Shown one piece after another: positions 20,785-30,026 of a stretch of DNA of 64,000 nt; the first letter of the stretch is position 1; each line of letters starts with the position of its first letter. The position numbers and the translations under genes are program-made. The notes under the pieces are model-generated. The model searched no databases. It saw nothing but the letters and a program-made list of their open reading frames with translations, and was not told where the DNA came from. Source of the stretch: Escherichia coli (GTDB taxonomy: Bacteria > Pseudomonadota > Gammaproteobacteria > Enterobacterales > Enterobacteriaceae); assembly GCF_045037415.1 (NCBI RefSeq), contig NZ_CP173438.1, one strand, 5' to 3'.

Positions 20785-21003
20785 CGTGGATTCCTCAAAG
20801 CGTAAACAACGTATAACGGCGTATGATCTTATAAGCGGGACAGGCTGACAACTGTTAGTTAGCGAAAAAATGGTTTTGCGTAAGATATTGGGGCGTTTTC
20901 TGCGCTACTGCCAGCAGATCCTCGCGCTGGAAACGTAAGGCCAAACGTCGCCAGCCTGACGCATTTATTAAATTTCCGGATGAGCTGGCCGCAGAGTCGT
21001 AGA

Positions 21004-21765
21004 TTAGTCGGCTATGATTAAACGCGTCGACAAGGACGCAAGCGTTCTACGCGTCTGCCCATCAAGCTGACTATCCGTAATAATCTCTGTCAGTTCATTA
21101 AGATGCGCGATATTAAACAGCGACCATGAACCGTATTTTGAGCTGTCAGCCAGGAGAATTTTGCGCGAAGCATGCGCGATAAGATCGCGTTTTAGTGCGG
21201 CTTTCTCTTCCGTGGGTGCTGTAATACCCTTTTCAAGATCCCAGCTGTTACAGCTTAAAAATGCCACGTCCGGCCAGGTATTTTGCAGCAATTTACGACC
21301 ATGTTCGCCAATGCAGGACTGGCTGGAGTCGTCAATACGTCCGCCGATAATCGTCACTTCAATTTGCTTGAATTCAGCCAAAAAAAGCGCGATATGCAGG
21401 TCGCTTGTGATCACGCGAAGCGGTAAATGTGTAATCTGCCGCGCAAGTTCAATCATTGTCGTACCGGCATCAAGGACGACGGAATCCCCCGCTTTGACCA
21501 TTGACGCCGCTGCGCTGGCGATGGCATGTTTTTCCGCCAGGCTGCGCTGCATTTTCTCATGGGTAGTCGGTTGGGTAGGAATAAACCGGTTGAGAGTCAC
21601 ACCGCCGTGTGTACGGCTGATAACACCCTGCTCATCGAGTTTTATCAGGTCTCGACGAATCGTAGCCGGCGACGCATTGGTTACCGCCACCAGCTCATCT
21701 ACGGTGACCAGATTATGGCTTTTCAGGTAATCCATGATCTGCTCTAACCGGTTATATCCCTTCAT
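21004..21765 (-). CDS. DeoR-family transcriptional regulator
   Basis: 253 aa; N-terminal HTH ([20 protein letters not shown]), DeoR-type C-terminal sensor domain; start 1 nt after upstream stop. Confidence 0.85.
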
Positions 21766-21766
21766 T

Positions 21767-22753
21767 TTATTCTCGCGAAATCTGCATTGCTAACTGGATG
21801 GAAACTGCCATGCTCTCAGACTTGGCTTTTCCTGTCCAGGCAATATCAAACGCGGTGCCGTGGTCGGCAGAAGTGCGAATAAATGGCAACCCGGCGGTGA
21901 TATTCACCCCATCATAAAATCCAAGCAGTTTTAAAGGGATATGCCCCTGATCGTGGTACATAGCCACTACCATATCGAATAGCCCTTCATGGCATTGCAT
22001 AAACACGGTATCTGGCGGGCACGGGCCAGTAACATCAATATCTTCGGCCTGCATTGCTTCAATCGCAGGCGCGATAATCTCGATTTCCTCAGTGCCGAAT
22101 AAACCATGTTCCCCTGCATGTGGATTTACACCCGCCACGGCAATACGCGGACGCTCAATACCAACACGTTTCAGGAAGTGGTTCGCAACTCGAATAACCG
22201 TTTTGACCCTTTCACCATTCAAAGTATCCAGGAATTTACGCAGTGAGATGTGAGTCGAAATATGGATAACCTTGAGCTTCTCGGTATAGAGCACCATCGC
22301 GTACTCTTTGCTGCCGGTAAGATGGGCCAGCAATTCCGTATGCCCCGGATAGTTATGCCCGCCAAGATGCAGCGCTTCTTTATTCAGCGGCGCAGTGGCT
22401 ATGGCTTTCACCTCGCCTGATAAGGCCAGAGCCGTTGCACGTTTGATACAGCGATACGCTAAATCGCCTGCCACAGCCTGTACCACTCCGGGTGTCAGCG
22501 CATCGGGGTTAGCCAGCGGCTCATCCATCACGTTAATCACGCCGGGAGCAAAATGGGCGTCGCACACCTTTTGAATGACGCGTAACTCTGCCTGCGGCGT
22601 GATATTCATCGCCATAATACGTCGCAGCGTGCGCACACAGCCCACCACCACCACCGGGGCACCAGCAAGCCCGGCTTCGCTCAGGGATTTAATAATGATC
22701 TCCGGGCCAATACCCGCCGGATCGCCCATCGTTACCGCAATAATATTATTCAC
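21767..22753 (-). CDS. PdxA-family NAD-dependent dehydrogenase (PdxA2-like)
   Basis: 328 aa; [15 protein letters not shown] and [17 protein letters not shown] motifs; GTG start with gaggag RBS inside the kinase 3' end. Confidence 0.85.
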
Positions 22754-23981
22754 TACGCTTCTCCTCGATAAAATTCAGAACCTGATGCAACGTGGTCTCA
22801 TCGCCAAACCCACCGGCTTTCGTCATCACCGAACGGGACCAGACGCCGCCCAGAAAGTGACCGTATGGAACGCATTGCGCCACCTTCCCCGTAATACGAA
22901 ATCCGGTCGCGCCTAACGCACTGGCTGTTGCCATTGCGACATCACCACCAGAGAGATAAAGCGCATCGGGCATTGCGCAAAGCAGAACTTGCCGGGTAAG
23001 TTCGCCAAGAAACCGGCAAATTTTTTCCCCAAGTGCAGCGCGACTCATCTGCCAACGCTGGCAAAGGGTGTCGATCTGATGCCTTGCTACAGAATCGTTA
23101 CAGGTGTGGACAATACAGTGGTCGCCTTTCTGCAAGGCCTGCACAATACGCGCGTCATAGTCACTGGCATTGCCTGCCAGAATGTGTTCAACATCGACGT
23201 ATATCTGTGTGATACGTGGGTGTGAATGAAGTGTGGCGATCTGCCGTTGAGCGATTTCGCTCATTGAACCAATAATGGCCAGCACGGTGGGTGGCGGCAT
23301 AATCGCGGAGCGCCGGGCAACGGCATCACAAATACCAGCGGAGCCGACCAGCAGCAGCGGTTGTTTAGCCTGCATCACAGCGGCAGCGATGCGATCCAGG
23401 TCGCTGTCCGTCTGCGCATCTATCACGCCAATCCACGGTTGCTCATAAGACAAATGGCTGAGCTGAGAAACCGTAACGGGCTGGCATGGAATGGCCGTCT
23501 GCAACCGGATGATGTCCGCAATTCGGGCGCTCAATACCGGGGTTTTCGGATCGCTAGCAAACTCGGTTTCCGTTATCCGCACACCGTTTACCCAACACTC
23601 ACCGGCCACTGTGGTCCTTCCCGCCTGAGGAAATGCGGGGGCAACCACTGCGCCCGTTATACCGCATGCCTTCATCAGGGCTTCAATTTCTGCGCCGATA
23701 TTGCCTCGCAGCGTGGAATCTATCTTTTTAATCACGAGCGGCGGGTTATTCGCCAGAGGGAGATGACTCATCAGCGAGGTTATTTTCATCGCCGCCAGCT
23801 TAGGATCCATCGCCCGACTGTCGCTGTTAATCACCCATACGCTGGCATCACCGCGATAAGGCATTTCAAAGGCCACATCAACTGTATGCCCCACCTGCGC
23901 CAGGCTTACCCCCGCGTCGTTGGCTCCCGTGAAATCATCGGCAACGATGAGAATGCTCGGCTTAGTGATTCCCTTTTCCAT
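22746..23981 (-). CDS. DUF1537 four-carbon acid-sugar kinase family protein (OtnK/DtnK-like)
   Basis: ORF starts at TTG 24023; best start is ATG 23981 (ggag RBS 5 nt upstream); ILIVADDFTGANDAG N-terminal motif. Confidence 0.8.
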   Translation of the reverse strand: MEKGITKPSILIVADDFTGANDAGVSLAQVGHTVDVAFEMPYRGDASVWVINSDSRAMDPKLAAMKITSLMSHLPLANNPPLVIKKIDSTLRGNIGAEIEALMKACGITGAVVAPAFPQAGRTTVAGECWVNGVRITETEFASDPKTPVLSARIADIIRLQTAIPCQPVTVSQLSHLSYEQPWIGVIDAQTDSDLDRIAAAVMQAKQPLLLVGSAGICDAVARRSAIMPPPTVLAIIGSMSEIAQRQIATLHSHPRITQIYVDVEHILAGNASDYDARIVQALQKGDHCIVHTCNDSVARHQIDTLCQRWQMSRAALGEKICRFLGELTRQVLLCAMPDALYLSGGDVAMATASALGATGFRITGKVAQCVPYGHFLGGVWSRSVMTKAGGFGDETTLHQVLNFIEEKRSE

Positions 23982-24019
23982 CATCACTCCAGGTTGTTTT
24001 ATGATAACAATGATTATAT

Positions 24020-24033
24020 TCAATCATGATTGA
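24020..24033. promoter_or_regulatory. Candidate operator palindrome 1 in divergent promoter
   Basis: Perfect 14-bp palindrome tcaatcatgattga upstream of the kinase operon. Confidence 0.4.
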
Positions 24034-24116: not shown

Positions 24117-24132
24117 TGATTGAATTCAATCA
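24117..24132. promoter_or_regulatory. Candidate operator palindrome 2 in divergent promoter
   Basis: Perfect 16-bp palindrome tgattgaattcaatca ending 19 bp before the ADH GTG start; shares the TGATTGA half-site with palindrome 1. Confidence 0.4.
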
Positions 24133-24150: not shown

Positions 24151-25308
24151 GTGGTAATTATCAATAGCACGATACTGAGCGGCGCAGGCGCTATCCCTTC
24201 CCTGACGTCGCTCTTACCCGACATCAGAAAAATGCTGCTGGTCACTGACCGTAATATTGCGCAGCTCGACGGTGTGCAGCAGATTCGCGCCTTACTGGAA
24301 AAGCACTGCCCGCAGGTTAACGTTATCGATAATGTGCCCGCAGAGCCCACGCATCATGATGTGCGCCAGCTAATGGATGCCCTTGGCGATGCCTCTTTTG
24401 ATGTGGTGGTCGGGATCGGCGGTGGCAGCGTGTTGGATGTGGCGAAGCTGCTATCGGTGCTTTGCCATCCACAATCACCGGGGCTGGATGCGCTGCTTGC
24501 GGGTGAAAAACCGACTCAGCGGGTGCAATCATGGTTGATTCCTACAACCGCCGGAACCGGCTCAGAAGCCACGCCGAATGCGATTCTGGCAATCCCTGAG
24601 CAAAGCACGAAGGTGGGTATTATTTCCCAGGTGCTGTTACCAGACTATGTGGCGCTTTTCCCGGAACTGACCACCAGTATGCCCGCGCATATTGCGGCGT
24701 CCACGGGCATTGATGCTCTTTGCCACTTACTGGAGTGTTTTACCGCGACCGTGGCAAATCCGGTCAGCGATAACGCGGCGCTGACTGGGTTAAGTAAACT
24801 TTTCCGGCACATTCAACCCGCCGTGAACGATCCTCAGGATCTGCGCGCAAAACTGGAAATGCTGTGGGCGTCTTACTATGGCGGCGTAGCGATAACCCAT
24901 GCGGGCACGCATCTCGTTCATGCGCTCTCCTACCCGTTAGGTGGCAAATATCATCTGCCGCATGGCGTCGCGAATGCCATCTTGCTGGCGCCGTGCATGG
25001 CGTTTGTTCGCCCCTGGGCGGTCGAGAAATTTGCCCAGGTCTGGGATTGCATTCCCGATGCGGAAACCGCCCTGAGCGCGGAAGAAAAATCTCATGCCCT
25101 GGTGACCTGGTTACAGGCATTAGTCAATCAACTCAAGCTACCCAACAATCTCGCGGATCTCGGCGTACCGCCAGAGGATATTGCCTCTCTGAGCGAGGCG
25201 GCACTGAACGTGAAGCGCCTTATGAACAATGTGCCGTGCCAGCTTGATCTACAGGACGTACAGGCCATTTACCAAACACTGTTTCCGCAACATCAATTTA
25301 AGGAATAA
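24151..25308 (+). CDS. Iron-containing (group III) alcohol dehydrogenase family oxidoreductase
   Basis: 385 aa; GIGGGSVLDVAK and TTAGTGSE motifs; GTG start with RBS agagagg. Confidence 0.85.
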   Translation: MVIINSTILSGAGAIPSLTSLLPDIRKMLLVTDRNIAQLDGVQQIRALLEKHCPQVNVIDNVPAEPTHHDVRQLMDALGDASFDVVVGIGGGSVLDVAKLLSVLCHPQSPGLDALLAGEKPTQRVQSWLIPTTAGTGSEATPNAILAIPEQSTKVGIISQVLLPDYVALFPELTTSMPAHIAASTGIDALCHLLECFTATVANPVSDNAALTGLSKLFRHIQPAVNDPQDLRAKLEMLWASYYGGVAITHAGTHLVHALSYPLGGKYHLPHGVANAILLAPCMAFVRPWAVEKFAQVWDCIPDAETALSAEEKSHALVTWLQALVNQLKLPNNLADLGVPPEDIASLSEAALNVKRLMNNVPCQLDLQDVQAIYQTLFPQHQFKE

Positions 25309-25311
25309 ATC

Positions 25312-26199
25312 ATGCCGAAAACCATTGAAGGTGTATTAACCGCTATCGTCACCCCGTTTACCGCGACCGGCAGTCTGAATATCCCGGCGTTAAAAGTGCA
25401 GGTGAATCGTCAACTGGAAGCGGGTAACGCGATTTTTTGCGGCGGCACCAACGGCGAGTTTTTTGTGTTGAATGAACAGGAGAAGCTCAGCGTTACGCAA
25501 ACCTGCGTGGATGAAGTGGCTGGTCGTGCGCCAGTCGTGGCACACATTGGCGAGATCTCTACGCGCGAAACGATTCGTCTGGGTCAGCAGATTGAAAAAC
25601 TTGGCGTAGATGCCGTGTCGGTCATTGCCCCTTACTTCGTACCGCTGAAACAGGAAGAGTTGATTGCGCATTACAGCGCAATTGCCGACACACTGAGCAT
25701 TCCGATGTTTCTCTATAACATCCCGGCCCGCACTGGCAATACGATCCAGCCAGAAACCGCGCGTGCTCTGGCGTCGCACCCCAATATCATTGGGATTAAA
25801 GACAGCGACGGAAGCGACGAAAGCCTGAAGGGTTTTCTCGATGCGGTGCGCGACATTGACGGCTTTAATGTGCTCAACGGCCCGGATTCGCTGATCCATA
25901 AAGGGTTTGTCGAGGGATGTTCAGCCTGTATCTCTGGGCTCGCCAACGTCGCGCCGCGAGAAATCAATGCCATCTGGTCTCGCTTCCATGCCGGTGATAT
26001 TGAAGGGTCTTATGAAGCACAGGAGAGTGTAACGGGCCTGCGTACCGATCTTTATAAAGTAGCATTCTCCCCGGCTGCGGTGAAAAAAGCGTTGCAGCTT
26101 ATGGGGCATGATGTTGGTGATAGCCGCTACGCGGTTAATTTCACGCCTGAACAGATCAGCGAGATTCAACAAATTATTCGTCATTATAACATTAATTAA
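25312..26199 (+). CDS. DapA/NAL-family class I (Schiff-base) aldolase
   Basis: 295 aa; TPF...GTNGE and GIKDS (Schiff-base lysine) motifs; 3 nt after ADH stop. Confidence 0.85.
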   Translation: MPKTIEGVLTAIVTPFTATGSLNIPALKVQVNRQLEAGNAIFCGGTNGEFFVLNEQEKLSVTQTCVDEVAGRAPVVAHIGEISTRETIRLGQQIEKLGVDAVSVIAPYFVPLKQEELIAHYSAIADTLSIPMFLYNIPARTGNTIQPETARALASHPNIIGIKDSDGSDESLKGFLDAVRDIDGFNVLNGPDSLIHKGFVEGCSACISGLANVAPREINAIWSRFHAGDIEGSYEAQESVTGLRTDLYKVAFSPAAVKKALQLMGHDVGDSRYAVNFTPEQISEIQQIIRHYNIN

Positions 26200-26258: not shown

Positions 26259-27017
26259 ATGTTTTTGTGGTTTATGCAGCCAGATATCTGGCTCACTTTA
26301 ATTACCCTCACCTTTCTGGAAATTATTCTTGGGGTGGATAATATTATTTTTCTTTCACTGGTGGTGGCAAAACTTCCGTTATCACAACAAAATATGGCGC
26401 GTAAACTGGGTTTAAGCTGCGCGATGATTATGCGGATATTATTGCTGATATCCATTGCGTGGCTTTCACATATTACCCAGCCGCTTTTTACCGTGCTGAC
26501 GCTGGAGATTTCGTTCCGCACGTTGATTCTGCTCGGGGGCGGGCTGTTCCTGATTTATAAAGCGATACAGGAGATACGCGAAGAGCTGTCGCCCGCGCAG
26601 GAAGACGAACATGGCAGCGGATCGCGGCAACTGTCGTTGTGCGGTGCCATTGTACAGATAATGCTGCTCGATATCGTGTTTAGCCTGGATTCGGTGATCA
26701 CCGCCGTCGGCCTTTCTCAGCATATATTTATCATGATTGCCGCCGTAATGATTGCCGTCGGTGTCATGATGTTTGCGGCGAAAACAATTGGTGATTTCGT
26801 TAACGCCACGCCGTCAATAAAAATACTGGCGTTAACCTTTTTATTGTTTGTCGGTGTATTGCTGGTTGCCGATAGTCTCAACATTCATATTGCCAAAGAG
26901 TATCTCTACTTCGCGATATTTTTCTCATTAAGTGTTGAGACACTCAATATTATCCGTGAAAGAAAAAATAAAAAAGTTTCGACATTGATCGAAACGCATG
27001 AATCGCACTCGCATTAA
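26259..27017 (+). CDS. TerC-family integral membrane protein
   Basis: 252 aa; paired TerC motifs ILGVDNIIF and DIVFSLDSV; visibly more AT-rich than neighbours. Confidence 0.8.
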   Translation: MFLWFMQPDIWLTLITLTFLEIILGVDNIIFLSLVVAKLPLSQQNMARKLGLSCAMIMRILLLISIAWLSHITQPLFTVLTLEISFRTLILLGGGLFLIYKAIQEIREELSPAQEDEHGSGSRQLSLCGAIVQIMLLDIVFSLDSVITAVGLSQHIFIMIAAVMIAVGVMMFAAKTIGDFVNATPSIKILALTFLLFVGVLLVADSLNIHIAKEYLYFAIFFSLSVETLNIIRERKNKKVSTLIETHESHSH

Positions 27018-27052: not shown

Positions 27053-28222
27053 ATGTCTGTAGCCCTTATTCGTGACGGCGTCATCCGTCCATCCGAAAAC
27101 GATTCGCATGTGCTTACCGCCATGCTGCCCTCGTCCTGCCCGCAAAACCACGCGGCGAATATTCTGCCTTTGCCGGATGGCGCGTTAATGTGCGTCTGGT
27201 TTGCGGGAACGCAGGAAGGTATTGCCGATATTTCTGTCTGGGGATCGCGATTGCCCGCTGGCGGAATGCAGTGGAGCGATGCGGCCAAACTTTCCCACGA
27301 TGACACGCGTTCAGAGCAAAACCCGGTGCTGTTTCTCGCGCCGGATAACGTGCTGTGGCTCCTATGGACCGCACAAATATCCGGTAATCAGGACACCGCC
27401 ATCGTCCGCTACCGTAAGTCAGACGACCTCGGACAAACCTGGGGCGAGATTGCCACCCTGCTTGATAAACCCGGTACGTTCATTCGACAGCCAATCACGG
27501 TGCTTGATAACGGCAACTGGCTGCTGCCCGTCTTTTATTGCCGTACCCAACCCGGCGAAAAATGGGTCGGCAATGATGATATCAGCGCAGTGAAAATTTC
27601 CGCTGACGGTGGTCACTCCTGGCGCGATGTCGAGGTGCCGCAAAGTCTCGGCTGTGTTCATATGAATATCACAATGTTGCACGACGGTACGTTGGTTGCT
27701 CTCTTTCGCAGCCGTTGGGCAGACAACATCTATATCAGCCATTCAGTGGACAACGGCGAGAGTTGGTCGGTGCCGCAAGCAACCGAATTGCCCAACAACA
27801 ATTCGTCTATTCAGGTAACGACGCTTGCCAGCGGCGAACTGGCGCTGGTGTACAACGCGATGAGTGCGGCAGGCGCAGTAGAACGTCGCGCGTCGCTTTA
27901 TGACGAAATCGACGATGGCGACGACAGCCGCAAAGAACCGACAGCCGTCGGACGCTCCGCTTTCTGGGGTGCCCCACGCGCGCCGATGACGGTAGCGATT
28001 TCTGCCGATGGTGGGAAAAGCTGGTCGTGGCGGCGCAATCTCGATGAAGGCGACGGCTACTGCATGACCAACAATTCCCTGGAAAAGCTAAATCGTGAGT
28101 TCTCCTACCCCAGCATCAAACAAAGCCCGGACGGTACGCTACATATCGCTTACACCTGGTGGCGTCAGGCCATCAAGTACGTACGCATCTCCCCCGAGTG
28201 GGTTAAGGGGCAGGCATCATGA
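27053..28222 (+). CDS. BNR/Asp-box repeat protein, sialidase-fold beta-propeller, no signal peptide
   Basis: 389 aa; four Asp-boxes (SDDLGQTW, SADGGHSW, SVDNGESW, SADGGKSW); N-terminus lacks a signal peptide. Confidence 0.8.
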   Translation: MSVALIRDGVIRPSENDSHVLTAMLPSSCPQNHAANILPLPDGALMCVWFAGTQEGIADISVWGSRLPAGGMQWSDAAKLSHDDTRSEQNPVLFLAPDNVLWLLWTAQISGNQDTAIVRYRKSDDLGQTWGEIATLLDKPGTFIRQPITVLDNGNWLLPVFYCRTQPGEKWVGNDDISAVKISADGGHSWRDVEVPQSLGCVHMNITMLHDGTLVALFRSRWADNIYISHSVDNGESWSVPQATELPNNNSSIQVTTLASGELALVYNAMSAAGAVERRASLYDEIDDGDDSRKEPTAVGRSAFWGAPRAPMTVAISADGGKSWSWRRNLDEGDGYCMTNNSLEKLNREFSYPSIKQSPDGTLHIAYTWWRQAIKYVRISPEWVKGQAS

Positions 28223-28689
28223 TTATCGGTAATCTCAACCATTTGTCGCTGGCGGGGCTTCCTGCCTGGGTGAGAAATATTCTGCTGCGCCCGGAGTGTT
28301 CGTTATCGGCGTTATCCACCAGAGAGGACGGTCGCTGGCAACCTGAAGGATGTCGGTGGTTCTGCTCGCTGGGAACTTCAGACACGCAACCCGCCGAACT
28401 TCGCCATACGGAGTATCACCATCTATGGGCCGATATACAGGTGGTGATTACTGGTTGTGAGGGCATTAATGCGGGAACGCGGCCCATCGCTCGCGAAAAC
28501 GATGAAGAACGTAAGCCCGATCTGTTTATCGCCCCATCCCCTGAAAACAGTGTCGCCATCACCCTACACGCCGGTGATTTCGCCGTCTTTATGCCTGAGG
28601 AACCTCACCAGGCACTGTGCGCAATTGGCACGGCTACTTCAATACGCAAAGCGGTCTTTAAAGTACCGCGCGACATGCTGGAAGCCTAA
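28219..28689 (+). CDS. YhcH/YjgK/YiaL (DUF386) family protein, NanQ-like
   Basis: 156 aa; GDFAVFMPEEPH and KVPRDMLEA resemble the YhcH family as I recall it; ATGA overlap with the upstream stop. Confidence 0.8.
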   Translation: MIIGNLNHLSLAGLPAWVRNILLRPECSLSALSTREDGRWQPEGCRWFCSLGTSDTQPAELRHTEYHHLWADIQVVITGCEGINAGTRPIARENDEERKPDLFIAPSPENSVAITLHAGDFAVFMPEEPHQALCAIGTATSIRKAVFKVPRDMLEA

Positions 28690-28702: not shown

Positions 28703-29983
28703 ATGACAATGGAAATGATCCTGGCATTAGGAATACTGGTCCTGATGATCGTGCTGATCATGTCGGACAAAATGCCTTTTGGCGCACCGCCACTGCTTGC
28801 GTGTTTATTGCTGGTTGTATCGGGACTTTCGACCGTTCAACAGGCTTTTGCCGGATTCGTCAATCCAAGCGTGGTGATGATTGCAGGGTTTATGGTGGTC
28901 ATGGCGGCGCTACAAAAAACCCGGCTTATCAGCAACGTTAAATCTGCGATGATAAGCCTGGTCAATAAAGGCAGTTACCGCAGCTATGGGCTGTTATTAG
29001 TCATTGTTATGCTGGGTGCCAGTCTTGCCGGCACCGGAGCGACCGGTTATTACGTGCTAATTCTGTCGCTGGTATCCACCATTCCGTACAGTAAAAAGCT
29101 ACCAACATCGAAATTAATGATGCCCCTGGGATTTGCCACCAACCACCCGCTTCTTCCTATCAATCTCGCGCTTCTCTTTGGCGTTACGGCGACCGTACTC
29201 GAAACCGCGGGGTTTCATCAGGCGATTTCGATGGGGCGCTTTGCGCTGGTGAATCTCATCATGTCAGCGGCTTTCCTCGCATGGAGTCTTATTGCCTACC
29301 GTTTTCTTCCGGATCATCCCATTGCGGATGCTTCCGAGGATGCGCTGGCGGCACGCGAGGAAACGTTTAACGCCCTTCCTGCCTGGAAAGAATATTGCAC
29401 TATTGCCGCATTCGCTGTCAGCGTTATCGGCATGATGCTAATGAACATTCTGGGAAATATCGCCTTCGTTATTCCGGGTCTTGCGGGTGCGTTTGTTCTG
29501 ATGATCGATGTACTGGACTTCAAAGAAGTTCGCGATCATATGGGGGCTCCGGTCATTTTAATGATGGCGGGGGTGATCGGTGTAGCTGATGCACTGGCGG
29601 GCACCGGCTTTACGGCGATGGTTGGCGATGCCGTTGCAGGTGTGCTCGGTTCTGGCGTCTCACCGTTTGTATTTATTGTCGCCTTTGCTTTGCTTACCAG
29701 TACCTGCGCCACCTTCACGGGTTCGAATATGGGGTCAGTATATATTTTTGCCCCCATCGCCATTGCCGCCTGTACTAGCCTTGGGCTTAACCCGACCGCT
29801 GCCGCGATTGCGGTGGTGATTTCTGGCTGGAATGGCGGCTATATGCCTATTGACGGAATGCCAGCCATGATCCTCGGAATGGGGAAATACAAACTTCCCG
29901 AATTCTGGGTGTTCTCTGTACCAATGTATCTCATCCGCATTCTGGCGCTTTGTGCAGGCGCTGTTTTTATCTTCCCAATGTAA
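28703..29983 (+). CDS. Polytopic permease, ion-transporter-superfamily-like (family unresolved)
   Basis: ORF 28457..29983 trimmed to ATG 28703 (aaggagag RBS); about 12 hydrophobic segments, 426 aa. Confidence 0.75.
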   Translation: MTMEMILALGILVLMIVLIMSDKMPFGAPPLLACLLLVVSGLSTVQQAFAGFVNPSVVMIAGFMVVMAALQKTRLISNVKSAMISLVNKGSYRSYGLLLVIVMLGASLAGTGATGYYVLILSLVSTIPYSKKLPTSKLMMPLGFATNHPLLPINLALLFGVTATVLETAGFHQAISMGRFALVNLIMSAAFLAWSLIAYRFLPDHPIADASEDALAAREETFNALPAWKEYCTIAAFAVSVIGMMLMNILGNIAFVIPGLAGAFVLMIDVLDFKEVRDHMGAPVILMMAGVIGVADALAGTGFTAMVGDAVAGVLGSGVSPFVFIVAFALLTSTCATFTGSNMGSVYIFAPIAIAACTSLGLNPTAAAIAVVISGWNGGYMPIDGMPAMILGMGKYKLPEFWVFSVPMYLIRILALCAGAVFIFPM

Positions 29984-29991
29984 TCTCAGAC

Positions 29992-30026
29992 AAAAAAAGC
30001 GGCAGAGAAGATCCCTGCCGCTTTTT
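29992..30026. terminator. Bidirectional terminator between island permease and nagE
   Basis: aaaaaaa-gcggcag-agaagatcc-ctgccgc-ttttt. Confidence 0.55.

Follow-up and report, generated by a model that had tools for sequence, protein, structure and literature searches.

Which substance is degraded by the gene island between glnS and nagE of Escherichia coli, and which steps fall to the kinase and the PdxA-like dehydrogenase that are encoded side by side in it? The stretch of DNA considered here (the window; 64,000 nucleotides of contig NZ_CP173438.1, RefSeq assembly GCF_045037415.1) is an E. coli chromosome segment with the order pgm-seqA-ybfF-fldA-fur-chiQ-chiP-glnS, island, nagE-nagB, and the island is a 9.2-kb block with nine genes that sits between glnS and nagE. 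On its minus strand it carries genes for a kinase of the DUF1537 family, for a paralogue of PdxA and for a regulator of the DeoR family. The explanation which we favour overall, and which we regard as probably correct, is that these three genes (dtnK-pdxA2-deoR) are a D-threonate operon constituting the lower half of the island pathway. That the kinase and the dehydrogenase act on D-threonate and D-threonate 4-phosphate would, as judged by homology, be very probable.

Anatomy and family membership of the triad

The gene anatomy of the minus strand can be read directly and is as follows:

22746-23981, minus strand: dtnK, DUF1537 (four-carbon acid sugar) kinase, 411 amino acids, ATG start (open reading frame, Pfam, NCBIfam, RefSeq WP_000410734.1)
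21767-22753, minus strand: pdxA2, predicted D-threonate 4-phosphate dehydrogenase (decarboxylating), 328 amino acids, GTG start (open reading frame, Pfam, NF002891, PDB)
22761-22766, minus strand: GAGGAG, Shine-Dalgarno sequence of pdxA2 within the 3' end of the kinase gene, 7 nt before the GTG (sequence reading)
21004-21765, minus strand: DeoR/GlpR-family regulator, 253 amino acids, ATG start (Pfam)

The stop codon TAA of the kinase gene (22746-22748) lies within the first codons of pdxA2 (GTGAATAA) and the ATG of the DeoR gene begins 1 nt past the pdxA2 stop. An earlier reading made from the letters of positions 21767-23981 (the sequence-only reading) had claimed an ADDFTGA motif at the N-terminus of the kinase, a PdxA paralogue encoded directly downstream, a DeoR regulator at the 3' end and tight coupling of the genes. 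All of this was recovered: the motif occupies kinase residues 14-20, the two enzyme genes overlap by 8 nt on the minus strand, the regulator gene lies just beyond the positions named and encodes HTH_DeoR and DeoRC domains, and the kinase stop, the internal ribosome-binding site and the GTG of pdxA2 are all seen in the sequence. Judged from this arrangement of letters, dtnK-pdxA2-deoR is a single translationally coupled operon.

The kinase ATG at 23981 is also the start given in RefSeq. A kinase frame of 425 amino acids starting from a TTG at 24023, as found in a mechanical list of open reading frames, was rejected because the additional stretch holds the conserved candidate operator and -10 box described below; it is also contradicted by RefSeq and by all homologues, which start at MEKG. 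The length of the DeoR gene is given as 732 bp in a recent genome paper (PMC12928451) and as 762 bp in RefSeq.

The kinase has the two-domain architecture of the DUF1537 family, with SBD_N (PF07005) at residues 10-220 (2e-53) and NBD_C (PF17042) at residues 234-398 (2.3e-30), and residues A14, D15, D16, F17, T18 and G19 are invariant in an alignment of 14 sequences. It scores 531.3 bits against the equivalog model of D-threonate kinase (NF047819, cut-off 450 bits), covering profile positions 3-422 of 422, and 104 bits against the model of the 3-oxo-tetronate kinase OtnK (NF043035, cut-off 350 bits), and genes of the OtnC, OtnI or LtnD type were not found as neighbours in the annotated region. 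The kinase of a simple locus, in which only a kdgT-like permease gene accompanies the triad, reaches 674 bits on NF047819, so that the E. coli kinase is a more distant member of this equivalog. The nearest solved structures are 4XFM and 4XGJ (316 bits), which represent the Pectobacterium orthologue (847 bits with the P. aroidearum gene). The Salmonella structure 3DQQ was considered as a DtnK orthologue and rejected, since its score is no higher than 53 bits and it appears to be a protein of the OtnK/YgbK type. As summarised in a secondary source, four-carbon acid sugars are what the DUF1537 kinases DtnK and DenK phosphorylate (PMC10971088).

The second protein matches the Pfam family PdxA (PF04166) over residues 34-322 (8.9e-105) and contains the motifs GHTE at 137, NPHAGE at 210 and HDQGH at 267, which we take, from the PdxA structures, to hold the metal ligands. 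It scores 679.2 bits against the equivalog model of D-threonate 4-phosphate dehydrogenase (NF002891, cut-off 583). Among the entries of PDB it reaches 581 bits with 6E85 from Klebsiella, 554 bits with the Salmonella PdxA2 2HI1 and 194 bits with the E. coli PdxA 1PS6, i.e. its score to PdxA2 proteins is about three times that to E. coli PdxA and it does not belong to the canonical PdxA proteins. The two outcomes which the sequence-only reading had named as fatal to it, a PdxA homologue that groups with canonical PdxA and a kinase outside the DUF1537 clade, are thus not what was found. RefSeq gives identical genes the names dtnK (D-threonate kinase) and D-threonate 4-phosphate dehydrogenase. According to a secondary source, the PdxA2 family is a catabolic paralogue of PdxA which does not serve the synthesis of pyridoxal phosphate (PLP) (PMC9997740).

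The third protein contains HTH_DeoR (PF08220) at residues 6-59 and DeoRC (PF00455) at residues 77-232, as is characteristic of the DeoR/GlpR family. It reaches none of the NCBIfam equivalogs (172 bits vs a cut-off of 260 for AgaR and 168 vs 400 for YgbI) and is an unnamed member of the family.

Gene contexts, palindromes and competing explanations

Of 5426 complete E. coli genomes, 1047-1048 (19%) contain the whole block with 99-100% identity, whereas in the remaining ones the match was confined to the first 61-69 bases of the query, which belong to the glnS flank; because the block is either whole or reduced to this flank, it is an all-or-none accessory island. The glnS-side junction lies at about 20861-20869, since the match of island-negative E. 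coli ends about 61-69 nt past window position 20800. In a genome paper of 2026 on the avian pathogenic strain BEN2908 the island was catalogued as 'GR 6, nagE..glnS' and described as common to the strains APEC O1 (APEC, avian pathogenic E. coli), IMT5155, RS218, IHE3034, CFT073 and LF82 (PMC12928451). A contig from a gut metagenome-assembled genome labelled 'Citrobacter sp.' (DXKH01000039.1) carries the island at 99-100% protein identity to E. coli; it is probably a mis-binned E. coli contig, because the kinases of true Citrobacter loci are only 57-58% identical to the E. coli kinase.

For a comparison beyond E. coli, a scan of one genome per species yielded 80 Enterobacterales loci, which were compared by tblastn with all island genes, by open reading frame calls and by family searches. 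The kinase and PdxA2 genes occur together in all 80 loci, i.e. DtnK is co-inherited with its partner, and in all full-length loci the order is kinase-PdxA2-DeoR with DeoR always third, which argues that the triad is not a chance pattern of open reading frames. The triad was observed in three contexts. In type A (Cedecea, Raoultella, Dryocola, several Serratia) a KdgT-like permease gene lies directly upstream in the same operon and there is nothing more. In type B (Citrobacter youngae, Pectobacterium fontis) divergent genes encode an iron-containing alcohol dehydrogenase (Fe-ADH), a DHDPS-family protein, a D-2-hydroxyacid dehydrogenase and an MFS acid-sugar carrier. In type C, found in most genera including Klebsiella, Enterobacter, Pantoea, Erwinia, Dickeya and Pectobacterium, the divergent genes are those for Fe-ADH, DHDPS, an SSF symporter, a sialidase-like BNR_2 protein, a DUF386/YhcH protein and an SDR protein. 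A variant of type C, shared by E. coli, Pseudocitrobacter, Kluyvera and the Klebsiella oxytoca group, has TerC in place of the symporter, a terminal SLC13 gene and no SDR gene. Fe-ADH and DHDPS genes are divergent from the kinase gene in about 68 of the 80 loci.

Neighbour-joining trees of the kinase and the dehydrogenase are congruent: in both of them type A stands apart from B and C, and E. coli is placed beside Pseudocitrobacter, followed by Citrobacter and Intestinirhabdus. The identities to the E. coli proteins across the loci are 41-59% for the kinase, 74-84% for PdxA2, 66-84% for DeoR and 69-86% for the BNR_2 protein. In one Klebsiella locus (CP153239.1, 2767-7230) the SSF symporter gene is interrupted by an IS66-family and another transposase; the module there adjoins conjugative-transfer genes (TraG/TrbI/TrbM-like) and a CcdAB toxin-antitoxin pair and is apparently part of an integrative mobile element.

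Similar gene sets were observed outside of the Enterobacterales, where distant BNR_2 homologues (41-50% identity) keep the same partner genes. One metagenomic contig contains genes for an ABC transporter, BNR_2, Fe-ADH, DHDPS, a GntR regulator, a DUF1537 kinase and PdxA, and another one those for a TRAP transporter, the kinase, SDR, BNR_2, a sigma-54 activator, PdxA, Fe-ADH and DHDPS. In Amycolatopsis solani (L089, 9001-15104) an ABC transporter and BNR_2 are found with DeoR-PdxA-kinase, an aldo-keto reductase and an HpcH/HpaI aldolase, a clear case of non-orthologous displacement of Fe-ADH and DHDPS by another reductase and another pyruvate aldolase. Every transporter type found with the module is an organic-anion carrier. 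In fungi, BNR_2 homologues are 47-50% identical; a fungal metagenome contig (L087, 8024-13403) has BNR_2, DHDPS, PdxA and MFS genes within 8 kb, and the root pathogen Gaeumannomyces tritici (L090, 6374-17684) has BNR_2, MFS and DHDPS genes. A DUF1537 kinase was not seen in these two fungal stretches. The fungal clusters suggest that the pathway has a eukaryotic version or that a horizontal transfer took place. Because the partners recur in such distant bacteria, an anion transporter, the sialidase-fold enzyme, an aldolase, a reductase, the kinase and PdxA2 would belong to one shared pathway. The sequence-only reading had also claimed a C4 acid-sugar phosphate as an intermediate of the island pathway. 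This agrees well with the comparison, as genes for an aldolase, a reductase and an anion transporter accompany the pair in the Enterobacterales and in further bacteria, and in part also in fungi.

The conservation extends to the intergenic region between the two divergent operons, where two palindromes were observed:

24011-24026, minus strand: operator-like palindrome with the sequence TGATTGAATATAATCA, at a distance of 30-45 nt upstream from the kinase ATG (conservation)
24117-24132, plus strand: second operator-like site TGATTGAATTCAATCA, a perfect palindrome of 16 bp located 19 nt upstream of the Fe-ADH start

Both are of the form TGATT-N6-AATCA and they lie 106 bp apart in the divergent promoter region. 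Three of the four matches to TGATTGAAT in the window fall into this intergenic region of 170 bp and make up the two palindromes. The site at about -45 is conserved nearly base for base in nearly all type B and C loci, with kinases that are only 41-59% identical, and most loci have a second site again at about -150. Upstream of the kdgT-like permease gene of type A loci, perfect TGATT-N6-AATCA sites form a cluster of two or three, compared with a background of 0.16 sites (at most one mismatch) per kb. The motif therefore tracks the DeoR gene and not the neighbouring genes, and for this reason TGATT-N6-AATCA is likely to be the DeoR operator, for which we regard it as the candidate. The two palindromes might constitute a DNA-looping pair.

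The palindrome TGATTGAATATAATCA contains a perfect TATAAT -10 hexamer, 30-35 nt ahead of the kinase start. The DeoR protein would repress both divergent promoters, most likely by binding to the two palindromes, one of which overlaps the kinase -10 box, and repression would be relieved probably by an intermediate of the pathway, e.g. D-threonate 4-phosphate. A phosphorylated effector is a reasonable assumption in view of what is known about the DeoR family.

Several points weigh against the D-threonate operon as we propose it. A scan for consensus promoters gave no convincing -35/-10 pair in the intergenic region, and the scan for promoters and terminators gave no more matches than in shuffled sequence; we therefore relied on the conserved TATAAT within the candidate operator. 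The E. coli version of the module is without the SDR and SSF genes that most other genera have. The kinase shares only 40.4% identity with the Salmonella DtnK that has been characterised, and 41-44% with the kinases of simple kdgT-dtnK-pdxA2 loci; its gene is the fastest-evolving one of the module and its specificity is the least secure part of the proposal. D-threonate and D-erythronate are indistinguishable by sequence, and the former is preferred by homology only. The PdxA paralogue also exceeds the generic pdxA model TIGR00557 (369 vs a cut-off of 290 bits), so that the cut-offs of hidden Markov models alone cannot part PdxA from PdxA2 function. A literature search for experimental work on the island in uropathogenic or extraintestinal pathogenic E. 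coli (UPEC/ExPEC) returned nothing relevant, and in PMC12928451 the island was placed among 'uncharacterized features'.

In another explanation, which we consider unlikely, the kinase would be a D-erythronate kinase (DenK), the dehydrogenase a 4-phospho-D-erythronate dehydrogenase and the island substrate of the erythro and not of the threo configuration. DenK and DtnK are both DUF1537 proteins and both pair with PdxA2-type enzymes (PMC10971088), the identity between the E. coli kinase and those of simple D-threonate loci is only about 40-45%, and NCBIfam returned no separate DenK model for comparison. Both proteins nevertheless exceed the cut-offs of the equivalogs for the D-threonate enzymes, and the dehydrogenase is 74-84% identical over all three context types, including the simple kdgT loci. 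In addition, its 554-581 bits are reached with the Salmonella and Klebsiella proteins, the latter of which was deposited as D-threonate 4-phosphate dehydrogenase.

It is more unlikely still that the pair serves vitamin B6, with a kinase that phosphorylates toxic 4-hydroxy-L-threonine and a PdxA2 that acts as a second PdxA feeding PLP synthesis. This is the assignment made in PMC12928451, and it can point to the Salmonella DUF1537 kinase STM0162, which phosphorylates 4-hydroxy-L-threonine (PMC10971088, PMC7954711), to the ability of PdxA2 to catalyse the PdxA reaction (PMC9997740) and to the score of the paralogue on TIGR00557. The genes are however accessory, being present in 19% of the E. coli genomes, and the pair shares both its regulation, under a DeoR repressor of the sugar type, and its inheritance with an aldolase, a reductase and anion transporters. 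E. coli moreover has a core pdxA. In the fungal cluster a homologous PdxA gene is found beside BNR_2 and DHDPS genes, and fungi make PLP by another route. The roles as 4-hydroxythreonine kinase and as a substitute for PdxA are a documented side activity, which does not fit well with the catabolic, accessory and sugar-regulated context.

A possible source of D-threonate

If the triad is a D-threonate operon, the D-threonate has most likely to be supplied by the divergent operon, whose genes are:

24151-25308, plus strand: iron-containing alcohol dehydrogenase, first gene, proposed aldehyde reductase (Fe-ADH NCBIfam matches, all below cut-off)
25312-26199, plus strand: DHDPS/NanA-family protein, proposed pyruvate-releasing class I aldolase (dapA-, nanA- and HpaI-like matches below cut-offs)
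26259-27017, plus strand: TerC-family membrane protein (NCBIfam, RefSeq, locus comparison)
27053-28222, plus strand: cytoplasmic sialidase-fold (BNR_2/COG4692) protein, 389 amino acids (predicted fold)
28219-28689, plus strand: YhcH/YjgK/YiaL (DUF386) protein, related to the sialate anomerase NanQ (TIGR00022, 94.9 bits, cut-off 45.5)
28703-29983, plus strand: SLC13/DASS-family anion permease, last island gene (TIGR00785 dass, 55.6 bits, below cut-off; RefSeq 'SLC13 family permease')

The DHDPS-family gene always accompanies the Fe-ADH gene in the table of 80 loci, and the relatives of its product in PDB are DHDPS, YagE and NanA. The TerC gene holds in E. coli the position of the SSF symporter gene of most other genera, and another TerC gene is found near the module in a metagenomic locus (L088). 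The YhcH-family gene overlaps the BNR_2 gene by 4 nt; its product scores 90.6 bits against the NanQ model (cut-off 160) and has 9JRR and 1JOP as relatives in PDB. Between the SLC13 gene and the convergent nagE, a GC-rich hairpin with T-runs on both strands (about 29994-30025), a terminator sequence shared by the two genes, was noticed in the segment 29984-30071.

The BNR_2 protein has no match in NCBIfam, no signal-peptide-like N-terminus and no significant match in a sequence search of PDB (E about 0.09). Its AlphaFold model (pLDDT 92.9) is most similar to GH33 sialidases (TM 0.72, rmsd 2.6 Å, about 15% identity), a fold search that cannot tell sialic acid from other ulosonic acids as the substrate. 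In the alignment several Arg residues are invariant and Tyr352 is nearly so; they might correspond to the Arg triad and the Tyr nucleophile of GH33 sialidases, which are six-bladed beta-propellers. The protein is 77-100% conserved across Enterobacterales and also found in Aeromonas and Yersinia. No close relative of it has been characterised or crystallised, and it is predicted to be a GH33-type propeller.

In the scheme that we infer with regard to the enzyme activities, the effector, the order of the steps and the identity of the imported substrate, the anion permease would import a cyclic 2-keto-3-deoxy acid sugar or its glycoside, which the sialidase-fold and YhcH proteins may release or open. 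The NanA-like aldolase of the DHDPS family would then split a C7 2-keto-3-deoxy diacid into pyruvate and a C4 semialdehyde, and Fe-ADH would reduce the latter to D-threonate. In the minus-strand operon, by homology, DtnK would convert D-threonate and ATP to D-threonate 4-phosphate, and PdxA2 would oxidise this with NAD+ at C3 to a beta-keto acid, which loses CO2 to give dihydroxyacetone phosphate (DHAP) for glycolysis. That the aldolase and the reductase indeed feed the kinase-PdxA2 pair appears somewhat more probable to us than that they do not.

Which compound enters this scheme can be narrowed down by chemistry. Because the aldolase would release pyruvate and the reductase would then make a C4 acid, the aldehyde must already bear a carboxylate, so that the substrate would be a seven-carbon 2-keto-3-deoxy diacid. 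The natural compound known to be of this type is 3-deoxy-D-lyxo-heptulosaric acid (Dha), which is proposed as a tentative candidate and for which we would give rather less than even chances; a close stereoisomer would fit likewise. Fischer projections were drawn by hand, with a method checked on the known conversion of D-glucuronate to L-gulonate. Dha has C5 left and C6 right, which after cleavage, reduction at C4 and renumbering become C2 left and C3 right, the configuration of D-threonate. If Dha or a Dha glycoside is imported, the semialdehyde would be D-threuronate. Dha occurs in side chain D of the pectin rhamnogalacturonan-II (bioRxiv 10.64898/2026.03.13.711244) and, as far as the titles of papers indicate, in some green-algal walls. 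The Dha scheme fits SLC13 as a family of dicarboxylate carriers, and it also fits the distribution of the module, which is plant-associated. The genes that flank the Pectobacterium and Dickeya loci add no support for pectin, as they encode a choline lyase, a zinc ABC transporter and a chemoreceptor and are not pectin-related, and no paper describing Dha catabolism was found in the literature that was searchable.

Other substrates were rejected on chemical grounds: C5-C6 aldoses result from Kdo, KDN and sialic acid, 3-deoxy-heptulosonates give rise to a tetrose that the reductase would turn into a tetritol and not an acid, and 5-keto-4-deoxyglucarate leads to a C3 product. That the kinase phosphorylates a C6-C7 2-keto-3-deoxy acid before aldol cleavage, like KDG kinase, with the dehydrogenase still acting on a C4 phosphate, is very improbable, even though the kinase diverges much faster (41-59%) than the other module genes (74-84% for PdxA2) and DUF1537 includes kinases for larger substrates such as the 3-oxo-isoapionate kinase (NF042436), because a C7 monoacid with a terminal phosphate would be cleaved to a tetrose 4-phosphate that needs oxidation to become the PdxA2 substrate, because reduction and not oxidation is expected of Fe-ADH or the aldo-keto reductase, and because the type A loci with permease, kinase, PdxA2 and DeoR are complete only if the kinase takes a C4 acid.

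Significance and comparison with known systems

About one fifth of the complete E. coli genomes carry the module, as do many plant-associated and gut Enterobacterales and also other bacteria; parts of it are found in fungi that are plant pathogens. Naming its substrate would fill a gap in the catabolism of pectin and acid sugars, explain the biological origin of D-threonate, give a function to the widespread sialidase-fold family COG4692 and point to a niche nutrient of the extraintestinal pathogenic E. coli lineages. If the Dha route is true, it would be the first catabolic pathway for Dha and a natural source for D-threonate, and it would explain the occurrence of the module in plant-associated bacteria and fungi; it also suggests that B2-type E. 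coli scavenge a dietary-pectin sugar that is freed by other gut bacteria.

The D-threonate pathway of Salmonella was reportedly described by Zhang et al. in 2016, when the enzyme families are said to have been characterised. Salmonella Typhimurium DtnK (STM0162, Q8ZRS5) and PdxA2 (STM0163, P58718; structure 2HI1) belong to the same families as the pair of the island, are encoded in the same order and have a DeoR-type regulator, and the dehydrogenases are 75.4% identical. The NCBIfam equivalogs whose cut-offs both E. coli proteins exceed were built around these Salmonella enzymes. The island differs from the D-threonate loci of the simple type, which have a KdgT-like permease gene upstream, lack the aldolase, reductase and sialidase-like genes and form a separate clade in both trees; Salmonella LT2 itself presumably has this simple layout. 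The Pectobacterium kinase 4XFM/4XGJ, deposited as 'uncharacterized protein', is the orthologue from loci with the full module (Fe-ADH, DHDPS, SSF, BNR_2, DUF386, SDR). It is however only about 45% identical to the E. coli kinase, and SSF and SDR genes are found there where E. coli has TerC and SLC13; the 4XFM protein was reportedly assayed as a D-threonate kinase by Zhang et al. in 2016. The Klebsiella dehydrogenase 6E85, considered here by its structure, is the best match of the E. coli dehydrogenase over the full length, with identical residues in all motif regions, and Klebsiella loci have the same module.

With the ygbI-ygbN cluster of E. coli K-12 (YgbK/OtnK; L-threonate and D-erythronate) the island shares a DUF1537 kinase, a DeoR-family regulator (YgbI) and DHAP as the end product. 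The OtnK route, however, uses a dehydrogenase, a decarboxylase and an isomerase, none of which is found in the island, which has PdxA2 instead. Canonical PdxA is of the same Pfam family as PdxA2, with the same His-containing motifs and an NAD-dependent oxidation and decarboxylation of a 4-phospho C4 acid; the paralogue differs in that it is encoded in an accessory catabolic island and not in the core genome.

The proposed upper half of the pathway is, by analogy, similar to the GarL-GarR-GarK and the NanA/NanQ/sialidase systems, in which a 2-keto-3-deoxy acid is split, an aldehyde-acid is reduced and the product phosphorylated. Proteins of the NanA and NanQ families and with a sialidase fold are shared with the sialate system, and the HpcH/HpaI aldolase of Amycolatopsis is of the GarL family. 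In contrast to the Gar system, the island product would be one carbon longer (C4 vs C3) and the glycerate kinase is replaced by DUF1537 and PdxA2. In contrast to the Nan system, there are no genes of the NanK, NanE and NagA/B type in the island, and no island protein reaches the cut-off of a Nan or Gar equivalog.

Compared with these systems, the kinase-PdxA2 pair as such is already known and correctly named in RefSeq, and a catalogue of 2026 lists the island for ExPEC/APEC strains. New are the occurrence of the triad in three contexts across 80 loci, the palindrome that tracks the DeoR gene, and the recurring association with aldolase, reductase and sialidase-fold genes. This association points to a pathway without earlier description, from a C7 diacid to pyruvate and a C4 semialdehyde and further via D-threonate to DHAP.

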